Virus record (IMG/VR): IMGVR_UViG_3300044719_000253
Location: 162,012-226,011 of that record
Length of the DNA stretch: 64,000 bases
Strand: one strand, 5' to 3'
Origin: a virus
Lineage: Duplodnaviria > Caudoviricetes
Positions 1 through 12,651 of this stretch are shown piece after piece. The notes under the pieces were generated by a model that did no database searches, was not told the DNA's origin, and worked only from the letters and a program-made list of their open reading frames with translations. How positions within the stretch are numbered: position 1 is the first letter of the stretch; the number at the start of each line of letters is the position of its first letter. The translations under genes and the position numbers were made by a program.

Positions 1-87
1 GTACCCCGTACGTACCGGTAGCTGGTGGTAACCGTTACACGCCACCGTGTGTGAATGCTGAATGCCAACAAAATTTGCGCGCTTGGG
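1..87 (-). CDS. Exon 2 (partial, runs off the window) of the virion RNAP beta subunit
   Basis: Manual translation from 87 down gives PKRANFVGIQHSHTVACNGYHQLPVRTGY. This continues the exon 1 ...SDRDD and parallels bacterial beta EHDDANRALMGSNMQRQ...PLVGTG. Confidence 0.9.
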
Positions 88-453
88 CCTTTGGTCTTCA
101 GGTAGGTCGTTAAGCTACCCCGCACCATTACGTGCCTAGCTCCAGAGTTTTCCTCTGGACGTTGAGACTATATCTTCACCCTCTCCCATGGAGGTGGGGT
201 GCTTCCCATTTCGAGGCCACTTGGTCCCCTATGGACATTTGTCCTAGTCGTTGAAGTTTATCCGTGGCCGCGTTGCGGCTTTAGGATCTTACCTGCTAAA
301 GAGAGTCTTCGACTCTACGGTTCCGCAATCCGCTCCGTTTTCAAACCATCACGAATGATCTTTCGATCTGCGTTGTGGTGGAGCAGCTCTCAGTCGGTTC
401 CAGCAGTTAGAGAAGATTCAGTTAAGCATTCCGGCTTAACTGGACCCCAGTTG
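88..453 (-). ncRNA. Group I self-splicing intron (366 nt, IA-like, no homing endonuclease ORF)
   Basis: Minus strand carries P (AACUGCUGGAA), Q (UUUAGCAGG), R (UUCAACGACUA) and S (AAGAUAUAGUC). P7 is GACUA/UAGUC and P3 is CUUCUC/GGGAAG, with a 9-bp P2. The IGS UGGGGUC pairs with exon 1 GAU (U.G at the splice site) and exon 2 CCCA (P10). Terminal G at 88. Removal restores the frame. Confidence 0.93.
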
Positions 454-3400
454 ATCATCCCGGTCAGAACCGGGAGCGAGCAATACAGCAGTTGACAGCA
501 GCGGTGCGCTACCCATCGTTTCTTTGTTATAGCGGCGTGTCACCCCGCGCAGCGACGTGAACTGCGGGTCGGCGCTGGTGTAGGTGTTAATCGCCACATC
601 CGAACTGTCGACGGTGTCGGTCGAAATCAAACCCATGTCGTTCTTGTGGTACGTCCGGGTTTCTTTCGTCATGGTGCGGCTATTGCGACCACCGGTGCCG
701 TTATACGTCACCGCTTCCTGTTCCTTCAGATTCTGGATCGGGTTGATCTCATTGGTCTGGGCTTTGGAAGCATCGGTCTGAATCGCCGTAAACACCGCAA
801 ACGGGTCCATGTTCAGTGGTGAACGCGATTTACCGGCACTGGCGTTGTGACGACGAATCGCCGTGACCATTTCCGAGTACACTGCTCCGGCCATCCGCTC
901 ATAACCCCGCAAGCGCATGTAGGCACCATCGAATTCATCCGGATGGTCATCGCGCACCAGCATGGTGCCGGCTCGGATCAACAATGCGCGCATGTCGGTG
1001 GGTTCATTCATCTCCACCAGAATATCGTGCGTGATCGGGTCGATGAACATTTGGTAGAACAAGTCCATCTCACGGATGTAACGTACCCCCAATCCATCGG
1101 CTTCCAGCACGTTCAGGTACACCTCTTTGTTATTAAACAGGTGTACATTGTAACGGCGGATGTGACGGTGGTATTCGTTAAAGCCACCCAAGAACAGTCC
1201 GGTGAGGTGATCGTTCTTATCAAAGATGATGGTCTCATCGTTGAACATCACCGGCTCTTCATTTAGACCCAGATCGAGACGGGTCCCTGCTGGGACACGG
1301 CGTACCTTGGACTTGAGCAGCGCCAGCATCGGTTCCAACCCCATCTCGTAGGCCAGAATCACCCCGACCGGAATCGATGCACCGCCGAGTTTCATCACCG
1401 CCACATCGACTGGCGCTTTCCGCCGATCCAACCCCACCAGTTCCTCAAACGACGGGAATTGGTACACGGCTGGTTCCCCCGTACGGCTGGGGCCGACGAT
1501 CGCCACGGTCGAGGATTTACCGATCAACACATAGTGCGTGCCCATGGTCGACTTACCAGCAATGATGGCGCCGTTCTGTTCGTACTTGGCCAGCGCCTCT
1601 TTGCCAAACAGCTCTTCCCGTTTGGTGTGATCGAACGACATGTTGAATGTCAGTTGACCGAGATCACGCGGATAAGCTTGTGGTGTCAGGGTAAAGCTGT
1701 TGAAGGCCGACGCGATCACCGAATACACCCGCGGCACGCTGACTTCGCTGTCCGACATATCGCCGGTGTGACCGTTGGTGATGGTTGGATCGGCATCGTC
1801 CAGCATCTTGGCCATCAGCCCGTTGGTCAACCACATGGCGTAGTTGTTGACTTTCTTTTCACTGCGACGGATGAAGGCTTTGCCGTAATAGCTCGTGAGT
1901 GCCACGGTATCCGGAGCGGTTTTACGGATCGGCAGATCGATCCGCTGTTTGCGCAGTGAGTACGACACGCCGTTGGCCAGGTACGTGCCATCTTCGCCCA
2001 CTACCGGCAGTTTGAAGCGCACAGTCGAAGCCGTACCATCCGTCGGCAACAGACGCACCGTGTAGATGTTGTACGCCCCCATCAGGTCTTCCACTGGCTC
2101 CACGTGATACTCAGTAACGCCATATCCGGCTTGGGCGAAACACATCACCATCGAGGCCACATCGCGTTGCATCACTTCGCTGGTATAACGCCGATCGAAA
2201 TCGAGCAGTGAGGACTTCAGCATCGACTTGTCCGGCACCGTAGGGATATCCGGAATCGCCGTGGATTCATTGACTTTGAGCGTCTCCGGAGGAATCGTGA
2301 TGTATTCCGCCACCGTCATCTTCGGATCGGGGGAAGGCATGGTCTTGTAAGCACTCGCCACCCGTTCGTAGTTACGATACTGCGCCGCCGTAATCGCCCC
2401 CGACAACATCCGGGCCTTGGCCACGCGCAACAGAGCTTCATCATGCGGTAAGCGCTTCAGGGGCGGGATCTCGGCTTCCACCAGTTGCGGGGTGTCGATC
2501 GCGGCTTGACGCTTTTCCAGCAGACTTTGTTCGGTCGCGGTATCGTCTACCGGCTCTGGCGTCAAAACCTTTTCCATCTCGGCCAATTCGGCATTGATGG
2601 TTTCGTCCAACTTCTCATCCACATGCACCGTATCGGCCGTGTCATCCGGTTTATCGTCCACTGGGCTACCCAGTTCTGCCTTCAGGGTCGCCGTCGGGAC
2701 CTTAGCGATACCCGTGGTCGGATCCACCACCGCCGGACCATTGCCGACCTTGGTGACGCTGGCCAATTCTTTCTTGAGGTCTTCCCGATCGTCCGCATCG
2801 AAAACTTGTTTCTCATGGGCATCGAGCTGATCGACTGGCGCTGCCGAGCGCAGCTGCGTGACCGACATGAAGAAACGCAGAATACGATTCTGGAAACGCG
2901 GGGGGTCGATCAGGTTCGGTTTGACGACTTCGTTCGGGAATAGTTCATCTTGGGTCGGTTTGCGCCAGGCGTCCAACATCCCGAGATTGACCGTGGTCCA
3001 TTGTCCTGATTCCAGGAACACCAGGTTAATCCGCGACAGGTATTGGCGCGGCACTAAACCCAACATGGATTGTTTGCGGTTAGCGCCGAACCATTTCCAC
3101 ACTTCGCCCAAGAACAGATGTTCATTGGAGAAGAACATGCGCATCAGACGCTGCACTGGTTTGCGGGGATCCATCGCTTCGTACTGTTGCAAGATCGAGC
3201 GCGGTGGCAAGACTTGCGGCAGATGCATCACCACAAATTGCGGCCGGTCCGTGATTTGGGCCAGACGGGCGATCTCGGTCCATTGGGTGCGTTCGATGTT
3301 GTACCATTCCAGATACTGGTTCATCGGGCCACGCGGGTAACGCACCAGGTGCGGCAGCATGCCGTAGTTATACACCAGCAGGCTGCTGGCGTCCGCCAAC

Positions 3401-3783
3401 ACTCGATCATCGACCGCATTACGGAAACGGCGATAGTGTTGGTGGTACTGCCGAATCACCGTGCCCGGTTGCACTGCTTGTTTGGTGGGTGTACCCAGAA
3501 TCCCCGGAGCCATGTTCAACACGTGATGCACCCAGATGTTGCGGGCCTGGGCTTTTTGCAAGACCTTGTCATCTTTCATGATGGCGGCTGAAAAGCCTTG
3601 CAACACCACATCCGAATCCGACGGACCGTACGCGGTTGGGCTCAAGTGAGCCATGTGCACAATGGCGCGCCGGGGCAGTTGAAACCGTTCCAGACGCCCG
3701 AACTTCGGCGTCATCAGTTGTTCAACGCGGCGCAAGCCATAGGTGCGATAAAAGACATTAAAATCGAGCAGCATAAAGCTCAA
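454..3783 (-). CDS. Virion RNA polymerase beta subunit, exon 1 (phiKZ gp178-like)
   Basis: 1110 codons up to DRDD. Beta-like motifs LRKQRID, LTSYYGK, NPIQNLKEQEAVTYNGTGGR and GLISTDTVDSSDVAIN. Adjacent to the beta-prime gene and tape measure as in phiKZ gp178-181. The ORF-track end at 436 is inside the intron. Confidence 0.88.
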
Positions 3784-5399
3784 TCTCCAGTGAGGTTATG
3801 GAGCACCAGTTCCACGGTGTGCACCGAGGTGCTGGAAATAAAACGACCATCGGTCCCGACATACGCGCGGCGTTTGGTGAAGTACTCTGCCACTTCGGCA
3901 CGGGCTTCGTCCGAGTACGCGATATTACAGTTCATCATGTCGCCATCGAAGTCACCACCGAGTTTCGCCAGGCGAGTCGGGTGTGGGGACATTGACTTCA
4001 TGTACGGACCCGGAATCGGGAATTCCAAGGCGATATGGCTATCGTCCATCGGGGCCCAGTTACGGTCCAATTCACGGCGCCGTTCCGCCACCGTGGTGGT
4101 ACGGACATACAGATTGGTGGGATAAATCGACCCCACCCCCGTGATCGGATAACGGGCGACGGAGGCCGGGTAAGTATTCCAGACACGGTAACCCGACAGA
4201 TAGATCAATTCGCAGAACGTGAGCGGATACACGTCTTCGCGTTTCCGGCTGGGCGGCAACTCATCGATGTCATTGAAAATCTTGAAGGTGCCATCCGGGC
4301 CTTTATAAATCAAGCCCAAATAATGCCCTTCGATTTCCATCGGCAGATCCCGCAATGACTCTTCCCGGAATGCATTGATGACTTTCTCCAACCCTTCGTT
4401 GGTTTGGAAGCGATCGTAGTATTCGTTCTTGAGCGGAATGGCTTTGCGCTTGAGGGTCTTCTTGTCGACCAGATACGCTGGTTGGCTGATATCCGGGAAC
4501 ACTTCTTTGAGCCAGCCATGCTTGAGTTGATACAGGGTGATGGGCAACATTCCTTTGATCAGTTGAAATAAACCCACCGCGGTGTCATTAAAGCCCGCAC
4601 TACCGTGCTCACCCAAATATTGGGTTTCCACAGGTAGGGCGGTGATCACGTTACCGGTGCCGTTCATCACACGACGGCTGGCCCATTTTCCTTGGATCAG
4701 TTTGTTCTTACCGTAGATCAGCCGTTCAAACAGTTCGTAGATTTGCACGAACGTAGTTTGCAGCTTAAAGCGTGCCCGGTCGATCAGTTCCGGATTGGAG
4801 CGAATCGCGATATCCGACAAGGTGTTGGCCACCGCCAGCAGTTGACGGTACATCGGGTTGATCTCGTCTTCGCGAGGACGACCATCGGCACCGATCTCGA
4901 CATCGCGTAAACCCGCTGGCAACACCAGCACTTTACTGGTCATGGCCACGGCTTTGTACTTCTCGATCAAACGAATCGCCAGATCCCGTTTGTCCGAATT
5001 GGTTTTCGAAAAATCGATTTGGTCCCAATACTGACTGAAGTAATGGTAACCGGTTTCGCCATTGACCGCGTCTGAACGTTCGAAATCCTTTTTCTCCGGA
5101 TTCCACAACGCGTATTCGTTGCCGGACATAATCCCGCCATACAGGCGCTTGAGCGAAATCAGGGTATTATAAATGATCGGGTGAAATACCCCGACTTTGA
5201 TATCGATGTAGGCATAGCGGCGGCACCGCACATCGTCACCGACCCGACCGAAGATTCGAGTCGAGAATAACCCCTCAGGATGAAAGTTGTGGGTGATACC
5301 ATCGTACATCGCCAACGAGGTAATGGGAAACAGCCCTGCCAGCTTGGCAGGAGTTAACGCCAAAATCTGGACGTTGAAGGGGACCATCGATTTTTGCAT
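3780..5399 (-). CDS. Virion RNA polymerase beta-prime subunit with catalytic motif (phiKZ gp180-like)
   Basis: Catalytic LGGDFDGD motif, EGLFSTRIFG and VLVLPAGLRD. 4-bp overlap with the beta gene. Confidence 0.92.
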   Translation of the reverse strand: MQKSMVPFNVQILALTPAKLAGLFPITSLAMYDGITHNFHPEGLFSTRIFGRVGDDVRCRRYAYIDIKVGVFHPIIYNTLISLKRLYGGIMSGNEYALWNPEKKDFERSDAVNGETGYHYFSQYWDQIDFSKTNSDKRDLAIRLIEKYKAVAMTSKVLVLPAGLRDVEIGADGRPREDEINPMYRQLLAVANTLSDIAIRSNPELIDRARFKLQTTFVQIYELFERLIYGKNKLIQGKWASRRVMNGTGNVITALPVETQYLGEHGSAGFNDTAVGLFQLIKGMLPITLYQLKHGWLKEVFPDISQPAYLVDKKTLKRKAIPLKNEYYDRFQTNEGLEKVINAFREESLRDLPMEIEGHYLGLIYKGPDGTFKIFNDIDELPPSRKREDVYPLTFCELIYLSGYRVWNTYPASVARYPITGVGSIYPTNLYVRTTTVAERRRELDRNWAPMDDSHIALEFPIPGPYMKSMSPHPTRLAKLGGDFDGDMMNCNIAYSDEARAEVAEYFTKRRAYVGTDGRFISSTSVHTVELVLHNLTGD

Positions 5400-5469
5400 A
5401 AGGAATCCCGGAAAGCTAAAAGTATGACACCTCGGGTAGAGGATAGACTATATACAGGAGTAGAACGGT

Positions 5470-8400
5470 ATGGCCAAGCAATCGAATAACGAAAGGCTGG
5501 ACCTGGATTCGTACGACTTCGGGGATGAATTCAATTTTGATGAGTTCAGTCTGGAACCAAAGCCGGTCAAAACCAAACGAGAAGCCATTGAGCGTATTGG
5601 CGAAGGGGTCTGGGAAGGTACCAAAGATACGGTAAAATCACCGAGTTTCTTCCGTGAATTTATCAAGAAAGCCTTGCCACGTGGCTATGGTGACATGGTC
5701 GATTTGCTCGACCAAGGGGCCTCGTCCGTCCGTGAGCTATACAATGAAGGCGAAAAGGAAGCCAAGCCTTTGCTCCGTGATGTGAGCCGCGCCATCGATA
5801 AAATGATGCCGGCCAGCAGTAAATATCTGCCGAAGTCAGCGGAGAAGCTACTGAAGGATTTTGCCGACCGTAACCGCGAGCAAACCCAAGCTGGGGTCGG
5901 TGCCAACAGTGCGACTGATCTGGCCGTGGCTGCGATGCTGGCCGACACCTTCCGTTACGGTGCCAAAGAAGATACCCGCCGGGAAGCCAAACAAGACGCC
6001 CGCGAAACTATCCGCGACGCAGTCGAGAATGACCGCTTCAATTCGAACATCGCTCAACTTGACGGAATCCGTAAGTCGGTGGTGTCGATGGCGGCGTACC
6101 AGCGTCGGGTCGAATTCGGTTACCACAAGAAATCGCTGGAACTGCAAGCGCGGCAATACTTCGTCAACGTTGAGATGCTCAACGAGATGAAGCGCAGTAA
6201 TCTGCGCACCGGGGAAATGCTCTCGGGGATCTTGCACAACACCGCATTGCCGGATGTGGTTAAACTCAAGACCAGCGAAAAGTTCAAAGACATGCTGCGC
6301 AACAAGCTGATGGCAGGCTTGCAAGACGGTATCTTTGGGCAGCGGAATAACTTCGTCCAGAATCTGGGTAAAGCCTTTCGGGAACAAGCGCTGGGGAGTT
6401 TGCAGCACTTCATCGGTGGCGCTCGCGACGGCATTACTGGCGCTGAGATGGCATCCGATTCGATGGCCATGGCTCAAGACATGGGGATGGATAAGTTCCG
6501 CATGGCGGGGAATGTGGTGGGCGGGGAAGGTGCCAAGTGGCTGGGGAAACTGGCTGCAACCCGTCTGGGGAAACGCATCTCGGAATCGACCAGCCGGCAC
6601 ACCCAATCGCTGCGTCGCTTTGGCAACCGTCTGCAGCACGGCGTGGAGAATGCACCGCAGATTGCGACCGATTGGTCGAATACCGCCAGCGATGCTTCAT
6701 CGTCGATCGACCAGTTTCTGGAAAACCGGTTCGGCGAACGGCTGTCGGATAACAAGCGCCGCTTCTTGAGTAACCTCTTGGGTGGGGTTGGTGATCCGCT
6801 GATGGACTTGGCCAAAGGAACGATCCGTCGGACCAACAGCCGCGCGACCCAAGTTAAAGAAGGTGGGGTGGGGGATCTGTACACGCCTGCAGTCTTTAAC
6901 AACCAAGCCCACAAGTCGCTGGTCGAAGTGATCCCGGGGTATTTGGCTCGCATCTATCAAGAATTGCAAATCCAACGCACGGGCGATACGTCGATCGACC
7001 TGGCCCAGTATGACTACGCCAGCGGGCGATTCTCAACCACCCGGGCAGTGCGCCAAGCCACCTTCCATCGGTTGTTTGATGAGTCGTCGCGTAATGGCGT
7101 GAAATACGAACGCGAGCGGTTGCTGGAGTTGGTCGATCCACGCGGTGAACTCACGCCGGAACAACGCAAAGAATTGGCGGATCGCTTGATGCAGGATAAC
7201 CTGCGTGGACGGGCCGGCTATGAAACCGGGCGGATCAGTAACTACACCCGGGCTGGCAGCTTCGGTGAATCGCGCCATGGCGACAAATTCGCGGAACTCT
7301 TTAAACGCCTGGCAGAGAAAGACAAAACCACGGAAGGTGCCACCAACGTCGACTTCGCGGCGCGTTTCCGTGGCGTGGGACGTTCGGCAGCCAATCGTGA
7401 GAATGAGATCCAGCAACTGTTGGAAGTTTATCCACGTGATCTGCTCGAAGACATGGGGTTGTTAAAGCCAGGTTCAAGCCAAATCGACACGGCCAAGATC
7501 AATGCCTATTTCGGTGGTGACGTGTATACCGCCAACGGCGTGCCCGGTTTGGCAGGTGCCGGTCGACGTCGAATTCGTCAGGGCGGTGCGAATACCCGTC
7601 TGACCCACGCTGAATCCGCGCCGATCACTTCCATGGCGGATGAAGTCAAGCGTTTGATTGAAATCATCGAACTGCAGAACACCAAACCTCTGGTCTCAGA
7701 TATCAAAGAGATCTTGCTGGCGATGCAAGCGGATCTGCATCACCCGGGAGGTGCGGGTCCATCGACCCTGGATCGCGTCATCGATGGAGTGGGCTCGGCT
7801 ACCCGCGCAACCGCACAAGCCGCGCAGCGCACTGGACGTCAGTTCATGAACCAGAATCAGCGTCGTGTTGCGGCGCTGGTCGAACAAGCCAAACGCCGCG
7901 CACGCCGTGCCCAACGTCGGGCGACCGTCGGCGCAGGGCGTTTGCAACAACGCTATCAACCACAACTCGATGCTGTGCGCGATATGTGGGATCATCGTGA
8001 TGAAGGGTTGAGTCACCTCGGCGGGATGTTGCGTAATCGTTGGGACCAATGGCGCGGGTATGCTGAAGAGGCTTATGACCATTTGCACGGCGATGAGTTC
8101 CGTGACCAAGTGCGTCAAGCCCGTACCCGGGCTGGCAACGCCATGCGCAATGCGCAGACCCAAGCCCGGGGTGTGGGTGAGCAGCTGTTACGGAATGTCC
8201 AAGGTCAAAGCGAAGCATTGCGACAAGCGGCTGCCGCAGGTCGAGAAAAGAATGTTTTCACGGAGATCAAAGAGATTCTGCTGGCCATCCGCGACCGCCT
8301 GGAAGATGGGATCATCACCACGGGTGGGGTTCCGCCTGAAGGCGTCCTGCGTCGTGCCGGTGGCGCCACCCGTCGTGGGTTGTCGCGTCTGAACATGCGC

Positions 8401-11400
8401 TTGACCGATTTGGTCAAAGGAGGTTTCGGTCTGGTATCCGGTACCGCTCGTCTGGGTGGTCGGGTGGTCAATGGGTTGGTCGGCGGCAGTGCCCGACTGG
8501 GTTGGGGACTGGCCAAGGGTACTGCTGGTCTGGCGGGTGACGCGGTGGGGTTTGCCGTGTCGTCACAATACCGCCGCGCCCGTGGCTTCGTGGATATCTA
8601 CGTGGGCAATGAACGCAAGCCGCGTTTGTATGGTCGCATGCTGCAAGAAGGCAATGTCTATTTTGACAAAGAGTCGGGTAAACCGATCCGCCGTCTGAAA
8701 GACATTGTCGGCGATGTGGTGCGTCATACGGCCGAGGGTGAGCAACTCATTATGTCCGCCGAGGAAATCGAGCACGCCTGGCAAAAGATCGGTCCGGTCA
8801 AGAAAACCTTGAAGGCACTCGGGGTGACCGCTAAATCCGCCTACGGCATCGGCAAGAAGATTTTCGGCGTGGCCATGGATGGCGTACCACCGGTATTCCG
8901 GATGGCCATGTGGGGTGCCAAGAAAGCCTGGGGTCTGCTCGACATGGCCCAAGACATCTTCGTGCGTGATCGTCTCGATAGTCCAGCGATGACAGCAAGG
9001 CTGATGCGGGCCGGGTCGTACTACTCGGCCACTTCCTGGAAAGTCATCAAACGGCCTTCGCAAATCGATGGCCCGGTGTTGATTGGTGAAGGGGATCAAG
9101 CTGAAACTGTGCTGACCCACGATGATCTGCGCAAAGGGTTGGTGGACAAGAACGGCAAAACCATCCGCACCGGTTTGTCGAAACTGCTCTTTACGGCCAC
9201 TGCCGGGATTCGCAAGGTGACTGGGTTGGCATGGCGGGTGGGCAAGCAAGTCAATGCGGCTGCCGTCGGACTGGTGAAGAACGGGATCAAGCTGGGCAAA
9301 GCCGCGGTGAAAACTGGGGTGAATACCATCGGCGGGGCCTTTGATCTGCTGCGCGGTAAAAACCCATTTGCTCAAAAGACTTCGACTGAAGTGTTGGCGG
9401 CTTCCGCCCACATTCAGCTGGAGCAAAACTCGTTCTTGAAAGAGATTCGAGATTTGCTGCGCGAGCGTTTGCCCAAGCCGAAGGAACACAGCGACTGGGA
9501 CAGCAACGGGGATGGAATCCGTGACGGTAGTTACGAAGACCAGTTGCGCCAGAAAGCTGAAGCGGAAGGCGCACAGGCACCTATGGCTAAAGGACCCGGC
9601 GTTGGTGCGCGAATCAAGAATGGGGCTAAAGCCTTGTGGGGTAAGCTACGCGGTAAGAAAGATGAGGACGGTGAGGAAGGCGGTGACATCAACGTGACGG
9701 CGGGTGGCGGAAATACTGGGGAAACTCGGGATGAACGCCGCAAGCGCCGCATGGCCCGTCGCCCTGGCGGTAGCTGGGCGACCTCGAAAGGCTGGAAAGG
9801 TAAGGGTAAGTTCTTGCTGGGCAAGGCCGGTGGATTGCTGAAGGGTGTTGGTAAATTCGGCCTGGGTTTACTCGGTCTGGGTGAACTCGGTTTGGGCGGG
9901 GTATTGGCCGGCGCTGGCGGCATGTTGGCCAGTGGCGCTGCTGCGGTTGGAGGTGCCTTGGCCACAGCTGGTACAGCCATCGCGGGGGTATTGTCAGCAC
10001 CAGTGTTGCTGGGTGCCGCTGCGGTGGCCGGGGTAGCCGCTGGGGCGTATTTCGGGTATAAGTACTTGACCCGCAAAAAGCTCGGGTTGCTCTCGCGTGT
10101 TCGTTACGTGCAGTATGGTTTCGCACCACAAGACACTGACCACCTGGCAGCAGTCTTTGGGTTGGAAGACAAACTCAAAGACGCCATCATCTACGGCAAA
10201 GACGAAGCCAAACTCGATCCGAAGCGTTGTGATCCGATGACGCTCTTCAAAGACTTCGATGTCAGCCAAGACGACAAGACGGCCATGGAGAATTGGATCC
10301 ACTGGTTTAGTGTACGCTTCAAACCCATCTTCTTGACCCATGCAGCAGGCCTCAAAGCCGTGGCGGGGGACAAATGGCTGAGTGATGTGGACGGTCTGGA
10401 ACCTGCTGTGGCGTTGCAATACTTGAACGCGGTGCGTTGTCCGGATGGTGCTTATAACGACGGCACTTCACCATTCAAAGATCTCGATACCCTGAAGATG
10501 GGGGCTGGGGATGTGCAAGCGATCATCCAGCTGGCCGAGCGTGAACTCAAACGCAAAGCGCCCGATGCGCAAGCAGCGGGTGTGGTGGCAGCCGGCGCTG
10601 TCGGTGCCACTGCCGTAGCAAAAGCGGGTGAGGTCGCCGTGGGCTCAACCACCCCAGGTGGGGTCTCGGCTAAAGCCTTGGCGCAAGCGGGTTTGGCGAC
10701 CTCCGTCCAACCAGCCAAAGGTGCGCAAGTCATGGCTTCGGGCTCGTCGGTGGTGTTGGAATCGCTCGGCGTCAACAAACTCGATGGCGTGGACGTGGTG
10801 CGGTTTAAGGCGTATGGCTTGGTGAAGATGGAACTCGATAAGGTGCGCGCCCTGCAAGCCTTGGAGAAAGCCTTGACACCCAAGCTGTCCTACGTCAAAA
10901 ACGTCGCGACATGGTCGGGCTCGGTCGAGCAACAAGTGCTGGTGTCGGGAGCGGCTTTTGGGGTGGATACCTCGAACGATGCCATGACGGCCAATTGGAT
11001 CAGCTGGTTTAACCAACGGTTCTTGCCGGTCTTCTTGAACTACGCCAGCTTGATGAAGGCCCAGACTGGTAAGGATGATCCGGTGGAAGGCAAGAGCTTA
11101 CTGAAAGCCGCGCAGGCGGTTGATGTGGCCACGGCTTTGTACACCACCAGCACCAACGGTGGCAGCATCTGGAACGTCAGTGTCTCGCCCTGGGAAGGGT
11201 ATGCGCTGAATACCGATGTGCGCTCGACAGATGGCAATCTGCAAGGCTTGAAGGACATGGCCAAAGCAGTGATCCTGACGGAGCCCGGCGGTAAAGGGGC
11301 GAACCAACCGACGGCAGGCAAGAGTACGGCCAACAGCCAAACCACGCCAGCAGTAACACCGTCGACGGGGGTCTGGGGTAGCATCAAAGACTTCTGGAAA

Positions 11401-12651
11401 TCCACCAGCAACGCCGTTCAAGCGGCGGTCGGTAGCAACGCTACTGTGGCGACCGGTCAAGTCGTGACCAACCCGAACAGCATGAACGGGAATGGCATGG
11501 CGGGTGGGCGGGAAATGAACCAACCTGGTCGCGGGACTGGCGGTGATATCAATGCCATCCCGAAACCACAGGGCAACAAGAGTTGGGCAGCCCTGAAGGA
11601 TACGATTCTGGCGGCAGCCAAGATGGTGGGGGTGGATGGGAAACTCATGGCTGCGATGGCGGCAGTGGAGTCCGGGTTTGATTACTCGGTCAAAGCAGCC
11701 AAAACCTCGGCCACGGGTCTGTACCAGTTTGTGGCGAATACCTGGAATTGGATGCTGAAGAAATATGGCGCCAAGTACGGGATCGCCCCAGGCACCCCCG
11801 CCACCGATCCGCGCGCGAATGCGCTGATGGGCGCGGAATACCTGAAGGAGAGTGTGAATGCATTGGAAGGCAAGATCGGTCGACCACTCACCGATACTGA
11901 CATCTACTTCTCACACTTCTTAGGACCGGCTGGCGCGAAGAAGTTCTTGACCGCTGACCCGAATGCCCTGGGCGCCATGATCTTGCCGGAAGCCGCCGCG
12001 GCCAACCGCTCAATCTTCTATAGCCGTAACGGTGGACCATTGACCGTGGGACAAATCTACCAGTTGGTGAACAGCCGACTGCAAAATAAATCCCAAGGGT
12101 TGTCGATCGATGGCGGCGAAGCGACGGTTGCCACCCAAGCTACCGAAGCCCCTCCGGCTACGGCGAAGAAAGATGACGGGAAAGCCACGGCGCCGAAACC
12201 GGCGTTCGGGTTGGGGATGCCGGGCTTGCCTGGTAATTCACCGAGTCCGACGACCGCACAGGCACCGGCTCCGGTATCCTCGACATCGACCCAGGTTCCA
12301 GTGGCACCAAGTGCTCCTGCTATCAACCCAATGCTGGGTGGGGGCTTCATGCCACCGACGCGTACGCAGGACCAACTGGCCACGGCCCAGCAACAGATGG
12401 AAGTGCGGGTGGCGAACCTGACCGATACCAACAAGATTCTGTCGGACTCGTATAACGTTCAACGGGATTCACTGAAGGTGTTGGAACAGATTCGCGATGG
12501 CTTAGGTAAACTCAATGTGGCACCGAGTGCGCCGACACCCACCCCTGTTACCCCAGTGGCGGGCTCGCCAGCGGTGATGGCGCGCCAGCGTCAATCCAGC
12601 GAACTGCCACGGGCGCCGGTCTCGGTGGCGCGCCCCGCTGCACCGTTCTAA
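5470..12651 (+). CDS. Tail tape measure protein with C-terminal lytic transglycosylase (phiKZ gp181-like)
   Basis: 2393 aa, helical and Ala/Gly-rich with a hydrophobic central segment. SLT motifs AAVESGF...SATGLYQF...ANALMGAEYL...YFSHFLG. Divergent from the RNAP genes. Confidence 0.9.
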   Translation: MAKQSNNERLDLDSYDFGDEFNFDEFSLEPKPVKTKREAIERIGEGVWEGTKDTVKSPSFFREFIKKALPRGYGDMVDLLDQGASSVRELYNEGEKEAKPLLRDVSRAIDKMMPASSKYLPKSAEKLLKDFADRNREQTQAGVGANSATDLAVAAMLADTFRYGAKEDTRREAKQDARETIRDAVENDRFNSNIAQLDGIRKSVVSMAAYQRRVEFGYHKKSLELQARQYFVNVEMLNEMKRSNLRTGEMLSGILHNTALPDVVKLKTSEKFKDMLRNKLMAGLQDGIFGQRNNFVQNLGKAFREQALGSLQHFIGGARDGITGAEMASDSMAMAQDMGMDKFRMAGNVVGGEGAKWLGKLAATRLGKRISESTSRHTQSLRRFGNRLQHGVENAPQIATDWSNTASDASSSIDQFLENRFGERLSDNKRRFLSNLLGGVGDPLMDLAKGTIRRTNSRATQVKEGGVGDLYTPAVFNNQAHKSLVEVIPGYLARIYQELQIQRTGDTSIDLAQYDYASGRFSTTRAVRQATFHRLFDESSRNGVKYERERLLELVDPRGELTPEQRKELADRLMQDNLRGRAGYETGRISNYTRAGSFGESRHGDKFAELFKRLAEKDKTTEGATNVDFAARFRGVGRSAANRENEIQQLLEVYPRDLLEDMGLLKPGSSQIDTAKINAYFGGDVYTANGVPGLAGAGRRRIRQGGANTRLTHAESAPITSMADEVKRLIEIIELQNTKPLVSDIKEILLAMQADLHHPGGAGPSTLDRVIDGVGSATRATAQAAQRTGRQFMNQNQRRVAALVEQAKRRARRAQRRATVGAGRLQQRYQPQLDAVRDMWDHRDEGLSHLGGMLRNRWDQWRGYAEEAYDHLHGDEFRDQVRQARTRAGNAMRNAQTQARGVGEQLLRNVQGQSEALRQAAAAGREKNVFTEIKEILLAIRDRLEDGIITTGGVPPEGVLRRAGGATRRGLSRLNMRLTDLVKGGFGLVSGTARLGGRVVNGLVGGSARLGWGLAKGTAGLAGDAVGFAVSSQYRRARGFVDIYVGNERKPRLYGRMLQEGNVYFDKESGKPIRRLKDIVGDVVRHTAEGEQLIMSAEEIEHAWQKIGPVKKTLKALGVTAKSAYGIGKKIFGVAMDGVPPVFRMAMWGAKKAWGLLDMAQDIFVRDRLDSPAMTARLMRAGSYYSATSWKVIKRPSQIDGPVLIGEGDQAETVLTHDDLRKGLVDKNGKTIRTGLSKLLFTATAGIRKVTGLAWRVGKQVNAAAVGLVKNGIKLGKAAVKTGVNTIGGAFDLLRGKNPFAQKTSTEVLAASAHIQLEQNSFLKEIRDLLRERLPKPKEHSDWDSNGDGIRDGSYEDQLRQKAEAEGAQAPMAKGPGVGARIKNGAKALWGKLRGKKDEDGEEGGDINVTAGGGNTGETRDERRKRRMARRPGGSWATSKGWKGKGKFLLGKAGGLLKGVGKFGLGLLGLGELGLGGVLAGAGGMLASGAAAVGGALATAGTAIAGVLSAPVLLGAAAVAGVAAGAYFGYKYLTRKKLGLLSRVRYVQYGFAPQDTDHLAAVFGLEDKLKDAIIYGKDEAKLDPKRCDPMTLFKDFDVSQDDKTAMENWIHWFSVRFKPIFLTHAAGLKAVAGDKWLSDVDGLEPAVALQYLNAVRCPDGAYNDGTSPFKDLDTLKMGAGDVQAIIQLAERELKRKAPDAQAAGVVAAGAVGATAVAKAGEVAVGSTTPGGVSAKALAQAGLATSVQPAKGAQVMASGSSVVLESLGVNKLDGVDVVRFKAYGLVKMELDKVRALQALEKALTPKLSYVKNVATWSGSVEQQVLVSGAAFGVDTSNDAMTANWISWFNQRFLPVFLNYASLMKAQTGKDDPVEGKSLLKAAQAVDVATALYTTSTNGGSIWNVSVSPWEGYALNTDVRSTDGNLQGLKDMAKAVILTEPGGKGANQPTAGKSTANSQTTPAVTPSTGVWGSIKDFWKSTSNAVQAAVGSNATVATGQVVTNPNSMNGNGMAGGREMNQPGRGTGGDINAIPKPQGNKSWAALKDTILAAAKMVGVDGKLMAAMAAVESGFDYSVKAAKTSATGLYQFVANTWNWMLKKYGAKYGIAPGTPATDPRANALMGAEYLKESVNALEGKIGRPLTDTDIYFSHFLGPAGAKKFLTADPNALGAMILPEAAAANRSIFYSRNGGPLTVGQIYQLVNSRLQNKSQGLSIDGGEATVATQATEAPPATAKKDDGKATAPKPAFGLGMPGLPGNSPSPTTAQAPAPVSSTSTQVPVAPSAPAINPMLGGGFMPPTRTQDQLATAQQQMEVRVANLTDTNKILSDSYNVQRDSLKVLEQIRDGLGKLNVAPSAPTPTPVTPVAGSPAVMARQRQSSELPRAPVSVARPAAPF

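Follow-up and report, generated by a model that had tools for sequence, protein, structure and literature searches.

The gene for the β subunit of the virion RNA polymerase in an uncultivated phiKZ-like jumbo phage is split by an element that we consider, with a probability of roughly 0.8, to be a group I intron without a nuclease gene, of the same family and at the same site as the intron of Pseudomonas phage phiPA3, and most likely an ORF-less phase in the cycle of that mobile intron. That the element is a group I intron is secure. The DNA analyzed here, referred to as the window, is a stretch of 64,000 nucleotides at the end of an IMG/VR virus record of 226,011 bp that consists of one linear contig. 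Positions are those of the window unless stated otherwise, and gene and intron lie on the minus strand.

The interrupted gene is the orthologue of phiKZ gp178. Its first part resides in an ORF (3783..436) whose product ends with ...LLAPGSDRDD and then continues into the intron with QLGSS and a stop codon. Group I introns of phages and bacteria commonly have such an early in-frame stop (PMC3984707). In tblastn comparisons, exon 1 shares 51% identity with Burkholderia phage FLC9, 47% with Ralstonia phage RP12 and 37% with phiKZ-like RNA polymerase β subunits, and the alignment terminates at the invariant DD. The adjacent upstream gene (5399..3780) has the DFDGD motif of β′. Exon 2, whose first codon is CCC and not a start codon, comprises 372 amino acids in total, extends past the window edge into the part of the genome upstream of it and is colinear with uninterrupted homologues (tblastn). 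Removal of the intron yields a reading colinear with 65 uninterrupted homologues, and its DD|PKRANF lines up with FLC9, RP12, phiKZ and 60+ uninterrupted sequences. The position after DD is termed site A in the following. The features of the locus are compiled in Table 1.

Table 1 Coordinates of the split polymerase gene and of the structural elements of its intron in the window
Feature	Position	Strand	Basis or remark
Exon 1, virion RNA polymerase β	454..3783	minus	ORF 3783..436 and translation; ends ...GSDRDD
Group I intron, no endonuclease ORF	88..453	minus	366 nt; RF00028 match, phiPA3 core homology, fold
Internal guide sequence GGGGUC (intron nt 6-11)	443..448	minus	read from sequence
In-frame stop, five codons into the intron (DD-QLGSS-stop)	436..438	minus	translation
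P2 hairpin	419..442	minus	helix 1; 8 of 10 pairs with compensatory changes
P3 5′ strand (410-415) and P4-P5-P6 domain	255..415	minus	helices 2-8
Catalytic core	166..249	minus	helices 9-12, 90.6-100% paired
P7 (GACUA with UAGUC)	245-249 with 166-170	minus	pseudoknot with P3 (3′ strand 202-207)
P7.1/P7.2	213-244	minus	part of core
P8	177-201	minus	part of core
J8/7 stretch GAAGAUAUAGUC		minus	part of core
P9, P9.1 and P9.2 hairpins and 3′ tail	89..159	minus	helices 13-15
Exon 2 start	1..87	minus	frame reopens at 87 with PKRANFVGIQHSH

The intron matches Rfam RF00028 across the whole model (positions 1-253) with 43 bits and an E value of 1.4e-9, a score under the curated cut-off of 50, and a search of the whole genome returned the same intron at E 1e-10. 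With curated thresholds, Rfam yielded no match in the entire window, such that the intron becomes visible only with E-value reporting. In other phages (loci L028, L030, L044 and L057), introns at this site or the adjacent one score between 54.6 and 86.7 bits. The minimum free energy (MFE) of the intron was below that of all 100 shuffled sequences (z -3.3). The single-sequence MFE structure contains P2-P6 and P7.1-P9.2 and lacks the P7 pseudoknot because pseudoknots cannot be represented by this method; P7 comes from a covariation analysis in which ten site-A introns from different phages were aligned with a structure that includes the P3/P7 pseudoknot. In this alignment, 72 pairs are present with 95% of cells paired, and compensatory changes occur in 53 of them. 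None of 500 shuffles was as good, and slid partners were only 36-45% paired. The window copy makes 68 of the 72 consensus pairs. P7 is substituted on both sides in L068, and the P5 extension hairpin in the P4-P5-P6 domain of the window intron is shared with L067 only. We predict an intron of IA-like type, equipped with P7.1/P7.2, that is self-splicing.

The boundaries of the intron follow the usual pattern, as it is preceded by U (position 454, the last base of exon 1 and directly before the 5′ splice site) and has G as its last base (omega-G, position 88). The sequence-only reading of this DNA had given positions 88-453 for the intron, and these coordinates are exact. A boundary search according to the U/G rules gave a unique solution at the same position for eight other site-A introns. 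A 5′ splice site three bases further upstream, as suggested by the Rfam alignment, was rejected, since no 3′ site then restores both frame and motif. The internal guide sequence is complementary to GAU|CCC, the junction of the ligated exons: its GUC and the GAU at the end of exon 1 would form P1 with a U·G pair, while its GGG and the CCC of exon 2 would form P10. P1 would comprise only 3 bp. The guide element GUCC is conserved across all aligned site-A introns.

The 3′ end of the intron has a counterpart in a different gene. Positions 97-140, which cover P9.1/P9.2, share 43 of 44 nucleotides with the 3′ terminus of the intron that is annotated in Vequintavirus (rV5-like) coliphages within their DNA polymerase A gene, and a near-identity DNA search with positions 1-6000 of the window returned these 44 nt of Vequintavirus phages as its sole match. 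Elsewhere, the two introns resemble each other far less, a contrast suggestive of a terminal module that is shared or was exchanged.

GenBank lists two CDS for the polymerase gene of phiPA3 (gp211/gp209) and likewise for that of Pseudomonas phage EL (gp186/gp187), and on this precedent the spacer in the window might not be an intron at all but separate two polypeptides that together make up the β subunit. We regard this as very improbable. The group I core of the spacer is complete and strongly covarying, the break lies within an invariant motif that 65 homologues have in one piece, and exon 2 opens with CCC instead of a start codon. A reading as two independent genes was rejected on the same grounds.

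In phiPA3, two conserved aspartates directly precede the insertion point of the intron that encodes gp210 (Birkholz et al. 2024, PMC11620839). The sequence-only reading had described gp210 as an intron-borne HNH enzyme with a target in phiKZ near a conserved Asp, in agreement with the published work (PMC11620839), and had made its interpretation dependent on a common insertion site. The site is indeed common to both phages: the window intron follows the second Asp codon of DD|PKR and its position is nucleotide-identical to that of the phiPA3 gp210 intron. The junction reads ..CGG GAT GAT, 366 nt, CCC AAG CGC in the window and ..AAC GAT GAT, 1352-nt intron, ATG AAA CGC in phiPA3 (GenBank). The uninterrupted phiKZ sequence is ..CAT GAT GAC CCT AAG CGA (GenBank), where the GAC before CCT AAG encodes D1072. 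Because the three junctions line up, the insertion positions are identical to the nucleotide. The two introns thus share an orthologous host gene, the insertion point and phase 0. They also share sequence, as nt 37-118, 191-209 and 231-359 of the window intron are colinear with nt 1065-1347 of the phiPA3 intron at 71-76% identity (blastn E values of 3e-12 and 4e-10), and when the intron was used for a database search, phiPA3 was the match of greatest coverage (58%). They differ in that the phiPA3 intron is 1352 nt long and carries the 330-aa gp210 ORF downstream of the 5′ splice site and ahead of the guide sequence, whereas in the window this interval comprises 5-8 nt and contains neither an ORF nor a remnant. 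The other introns armed with a nuclease gene resemble that of phiPA3 and have the ORF between the 5′ splice site and the GUCC guide element. A further HNH gene is present in phiKZ, the intron-less victim of gp210: gp179 is a free-standing HNH_3 gene (L004:6661-7734) situated between gp178 and gp180, and gp210 is similar to gp179 according to its annotation in the phiPA3 record.

The sense strand of the window intron does not contain any ORF of 30 or more amino acids, which bears out the earlier claim that there is no internal ORF. Two antisense ORFs (199..495, 98 aa, and 132..254, 40 aa) matched no Pfam family. When seven gp210-like nucleases were compared with the intron by tblastn, no remnant was found (best E 2.0). 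Neither an HNH nor a GIY-YIG gene, the free-standing types that the sequence-only reading deemed worth looking for, was found in the 226-kb record. This record, which is estimated to be about 83% complete so that a nuclease gene could sit in the missing part, gave no Pfam match for HNH, HNH_3, GIY-YIG, NUMOD1, NUMOD4 or LAGLIDADG_3 and no tblastn match for gp210-type proteins (best E 0.35), and no nuclease gene adjoins the polymerase genes. A weak match to Endonuclease VII at genome positions 11378-11566 was discarded; it corresponds to a CxxC zinc ribbon, and its best PHROG is 'anti-termination protein Q-like'. Given the lack of an HNH ORF, the window intron is related to the autonomous mobile introns but does not belong to them.

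Mapping of intron positions across gp178 homologues, a check already proposed in the sequence-only reading, uncovered two adjacent sites: site A and a site B about 11 nt downstream, after PKRV. Among the 80 homologous IMG/VR loci listed, 18 are occupied at one of these positions and 62 are uninterrupted. Site A is occupied in nine loci, with an HNH ORF of 307-343 aa in L036, L038, L062 and L066 and without an ORF in L046, L053, L067, L068 and L028. The nine loci occupied at site B are divided into L050 and L058, which have an HNH ORF, and the ORF-less L030, L031, L044, L045, L047, L057 and L072. For the L030/L031 intron, no solution for exact boundaries was obtained under the U/G rules, while the boundaries of the other site-B introns were solved. 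The nucleases encoded at the two sites are mutually homologous proteins with HNH_3 and NUMOD/I-HmuI-like DNA-binding modules, 31-64% identical among themselves and 35-50% identical to gp210. In GenBank, 258 of 289 phage records are uninterrupted across the site, and the exceptions include Serratia phage Kodama (armed, site A) and phage EL (ORF-less, site A). The seven closest relatives listed for the window phage (94-69% amino acid and about 81% nucleotide identity) are all intron-less and belong to the 62 uninterrupted IMG/VR loci. On an 87-row tree of the host gene, the window phage falls into a well-supported clade of eight, the other seven members of which lack the intron. The 22 occupied alleles on this tree, 14 of them ORF-less, require at least 17 gains or losses, and 15 of these events are forced by well-supported branches. 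Clearly, the family is patchily distributed and moves horizontally, and the insertion region is an intron hot spot.

Locus L028 (IMGVR_UViG_3300042566_001512) is a special case. Here, both sites are occupied by ORF-less group I introns (5250-5930, Rfam scores of 86.7 and 77.5 bits), which are separated by the 11-nt micro-exon CCAAAACGAGT, and the ligated exons read DD-PKRV-NFVAIQ. Hence an intron at one site was no obstacle to the gain of another at its neighbour. In total, the 9.7-kb polymerase locus of L028 has six group I matches. Further group I introns reside elsewhere in the polymerase gene cluster of L030 (1480-1807 and 6442-6705), L072 (3400-3819) and also L057, and several uncultivated jumbo phages have intron hot spots in the genes of this cluster. 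The genome under study itself has a second ORF-less group I intron on the minus strand, 46 kb before the window (C1:115413-115687, 65 bits). It splits the catalytic motif NADYDG|D in another RNA polymerase β′ gene, and related sequence is present at 50.4 kb in phiKZ.

Two of the ORF-less introns retain traces of a nuclease gene. L067 (5302-5385) still encodes the last approximately 28 residues of an HNH nuclease (E 6e-8) and L044 (5324-5401) the last 26 residues of the nuclease of its armed sister L050 (E 2e-10), which shows that the nuclease gene was lost there by internal deletion. Loss by deletion is shown for these two introns only, and the window copy holds no remnant. On the intron tree, ORF-bearing and ORF-less forms interleave, and the window intron has no resolved sister, L067 being nearest by identity alone. 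Compared with the intron-less L007/L008, identity 30-90 nt upstream of the insertion point is 0.60-0.77 as against 0.81 overall, in a region where the protein segment is variable. A co-conversion tract is undetectable, since the nearest relatives are only about 81% identical in DNA.

As an alternative, the ORF-less intron could have been mobilized in trans, with a nuclease supplied either by another phage in the same infection or by a free-standing gene within the unsequenced 17% or so of the genome. Such collaborative homing is documented in other phages (PMC3984707), and a nuclease acting in trans would be compatible with the finding that the seven ORF-less site-A introns are scattered on the host tree as singletons among intron-less relatives, just like the ORF-bearing ones. 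The free-standing HNH_3 gene gp179 that adjoins gp178 in phiKZ points in the same direction. Nevertheless, rapid deletion of the ORF after ordinary homing would give the same pattern and is seen directly in L067 and L044, the 226-kb record contains no nuclease gene, not even beside the polymerase genes, and no co-conversion tract was detected against the nearest relatives with their DNA identity of about 81%. We therefore entertain mobilization in trans as a minority option.

Under the preferred reading, that of an ORF-less stage in the gp210-type cycle, a gp210-type intron, or a relative of it that was unarmed by then, would have invaded the lineage and persisted there as an unarmed ribozyme. 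Its transcript is expected to splice through attack of guanosine at the U·G pair of P1, followed by exon ligation guided by P10, which would restore DD-PKR. The phage would be unable to spread the intron by itself. Since the intron parts the two halves of a gp210-type target, the occupied allele should be a poor substrate for the nickase, as a mere by-product of occupancy.

The experiments on phiPA3 and phiKZ bear on whether such occupancy would protect. The gp210 enzyme nicks the intron-less phiPA3 and phiKZ targets (PMC11620839) and lowers the fitness of phiKZ via the DD|PKR site (PMC11620839). Escape mutants of phiKZ are changed at G3214 or A3215 in the D1072 codon (PMC11620839), i.e., at -3 and -2 relative to the insertion point, and phiPA3 was left unaffected by gp210-GFPmut1 expressed in the host (PMC11620839). 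Immunity to gp210-like nickases as a consequence of occupancy is plausible, because the escape mutations abut the insertion point and phiPA3 did not suffer from gp210-GFPmut1. The protective idea is not new: target occupancy by ORF-less introns underlies 'collaborative homing' (PMC3984707). Nor is this kind of immunity universal, as it fails for enzymes of the I-HmuI type (PMC3428280).

Two opposing views of this immunity have to be weighed. According to the first, the nuclease-free intron is more than a by-product and is kept by selection as a shield that guards the essential polymerase gene against the HNH nickases of co-infecting jumbo phages, which would kill intron-less phages and not convert them. 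The harm that gp210 does to phiKZ through precisely the DD|PKR site (PMC11620839) speaks for such a role, as do the occupation of the site in many unrelated lineages and the high share of ORF-less forms (14 of 22 occupied alleles) with an intact and covarying ribozyme. Conservation of the ribozyme is nonetheless uninformative, because a ribozyme in an essential gene must work with or without protection. In addition, the seven closest relatives of the window phage do without the intron, and the double occupancy in L028 implies that protection is at best partial. We consider a selected shield in the window phage rather unlikely. The broader proposition that, in nucleus-forming jumbo phages at large, nuclease-free introns at DD|PKR(V)|NF are positively selected shields against rival nickases that kill divergent or compartment-isolated genomes is unlikely in our estimation. 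If true, it would account for the prevalence of ORF-less forms with a perfect ribozyme among occupied alleles and for the use of two sites separated by 11 nt, in L028 even both together.

The second view denies immunity altogether: like I-HmuI and I-HmuII, the HNH nickases would have their main contacts in exon 2 and would nick alleles with an intron as well, and the intron would be only a selfish leftover. The site nucleases possess HNH_3 and NUMOD/I-HmuI-like DNA-binding modules, I-HmuI and I-HmuII cleave intron-containing as well as intron-less genes (PMC3428280), and in L028 both sites, separated by 11 nt, are occupied. On the other hand, the phiKZ escape mutations reside in the last codon of exon 1 and show that exon-1 bases matter for gp210, intron-containing phiPA3 was unaffected under host-expressed gp210-GFPmut1 (PMC11620839), and I-PfoP3I, another HNH nickase, spares intron-containing DNA (PMC3428280). 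A complete lack of immunity appears improbable to us.

Among known systems, that of phage EL (NC_007623) has the same outward form as the window intron: in this cultured jumbo phage, site A holds a group I intron without ORF, approximately 409 nt in length (..CAT GAC GAT|...|GTC AAA CGA; L087:2060-2464). EL differs in its Rfam score of 40.5 bits and its very divergent host gene, the longest branch of the tree, and its record is annotated with two CDS (gp186/gp187) and not with an intron. Collaborative homing has been described for psbA and F-CphI of cyanophage S-PM2 and for mobE and the nrdB intron of T4 (PMC3984707). In these systems, an ORF-less intron and a free-standing nuclease share one target, whereas no free-standing nuclease was detected in the approximately 83% complete genome studied here, and a partner would have to come from another phage. 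The introns encoding I-HmuI and I-HmuII are likewise group I introns of phages and interrupt a polymerase gene within a conserved motif, their enzymes are of the same nicking type with HNH_3 and NUMOD modules as the nucleases of the DD|PKR site, and competition between the intron-bearing phages is documented. They differ in that another gene and other phages are concerned, the introns carry the nuclease and the enzymes also cut intron-containing DNA (PMC3428280).

The phiPA3 study established that an intron nuclease can serve as a weapon between co-infecting phages and covered one armed intron and one unarmed target (PMC11620839). The locus described here and its relatives add the missing natural states: unarmed introns, armed and unarmed sister pairs, remnants of nuclease genes, a neighbouring second site at a distance of about 11 nt and an allele with both sites occupied. 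While the window intron alone is an ordinary member of its family, the comparative picture is of greater interest and extends the phiPA3 work, as the natural alleles are substrates for asking if an intron by itself confers protection and at what rate nuclease genes disappear after invasion.
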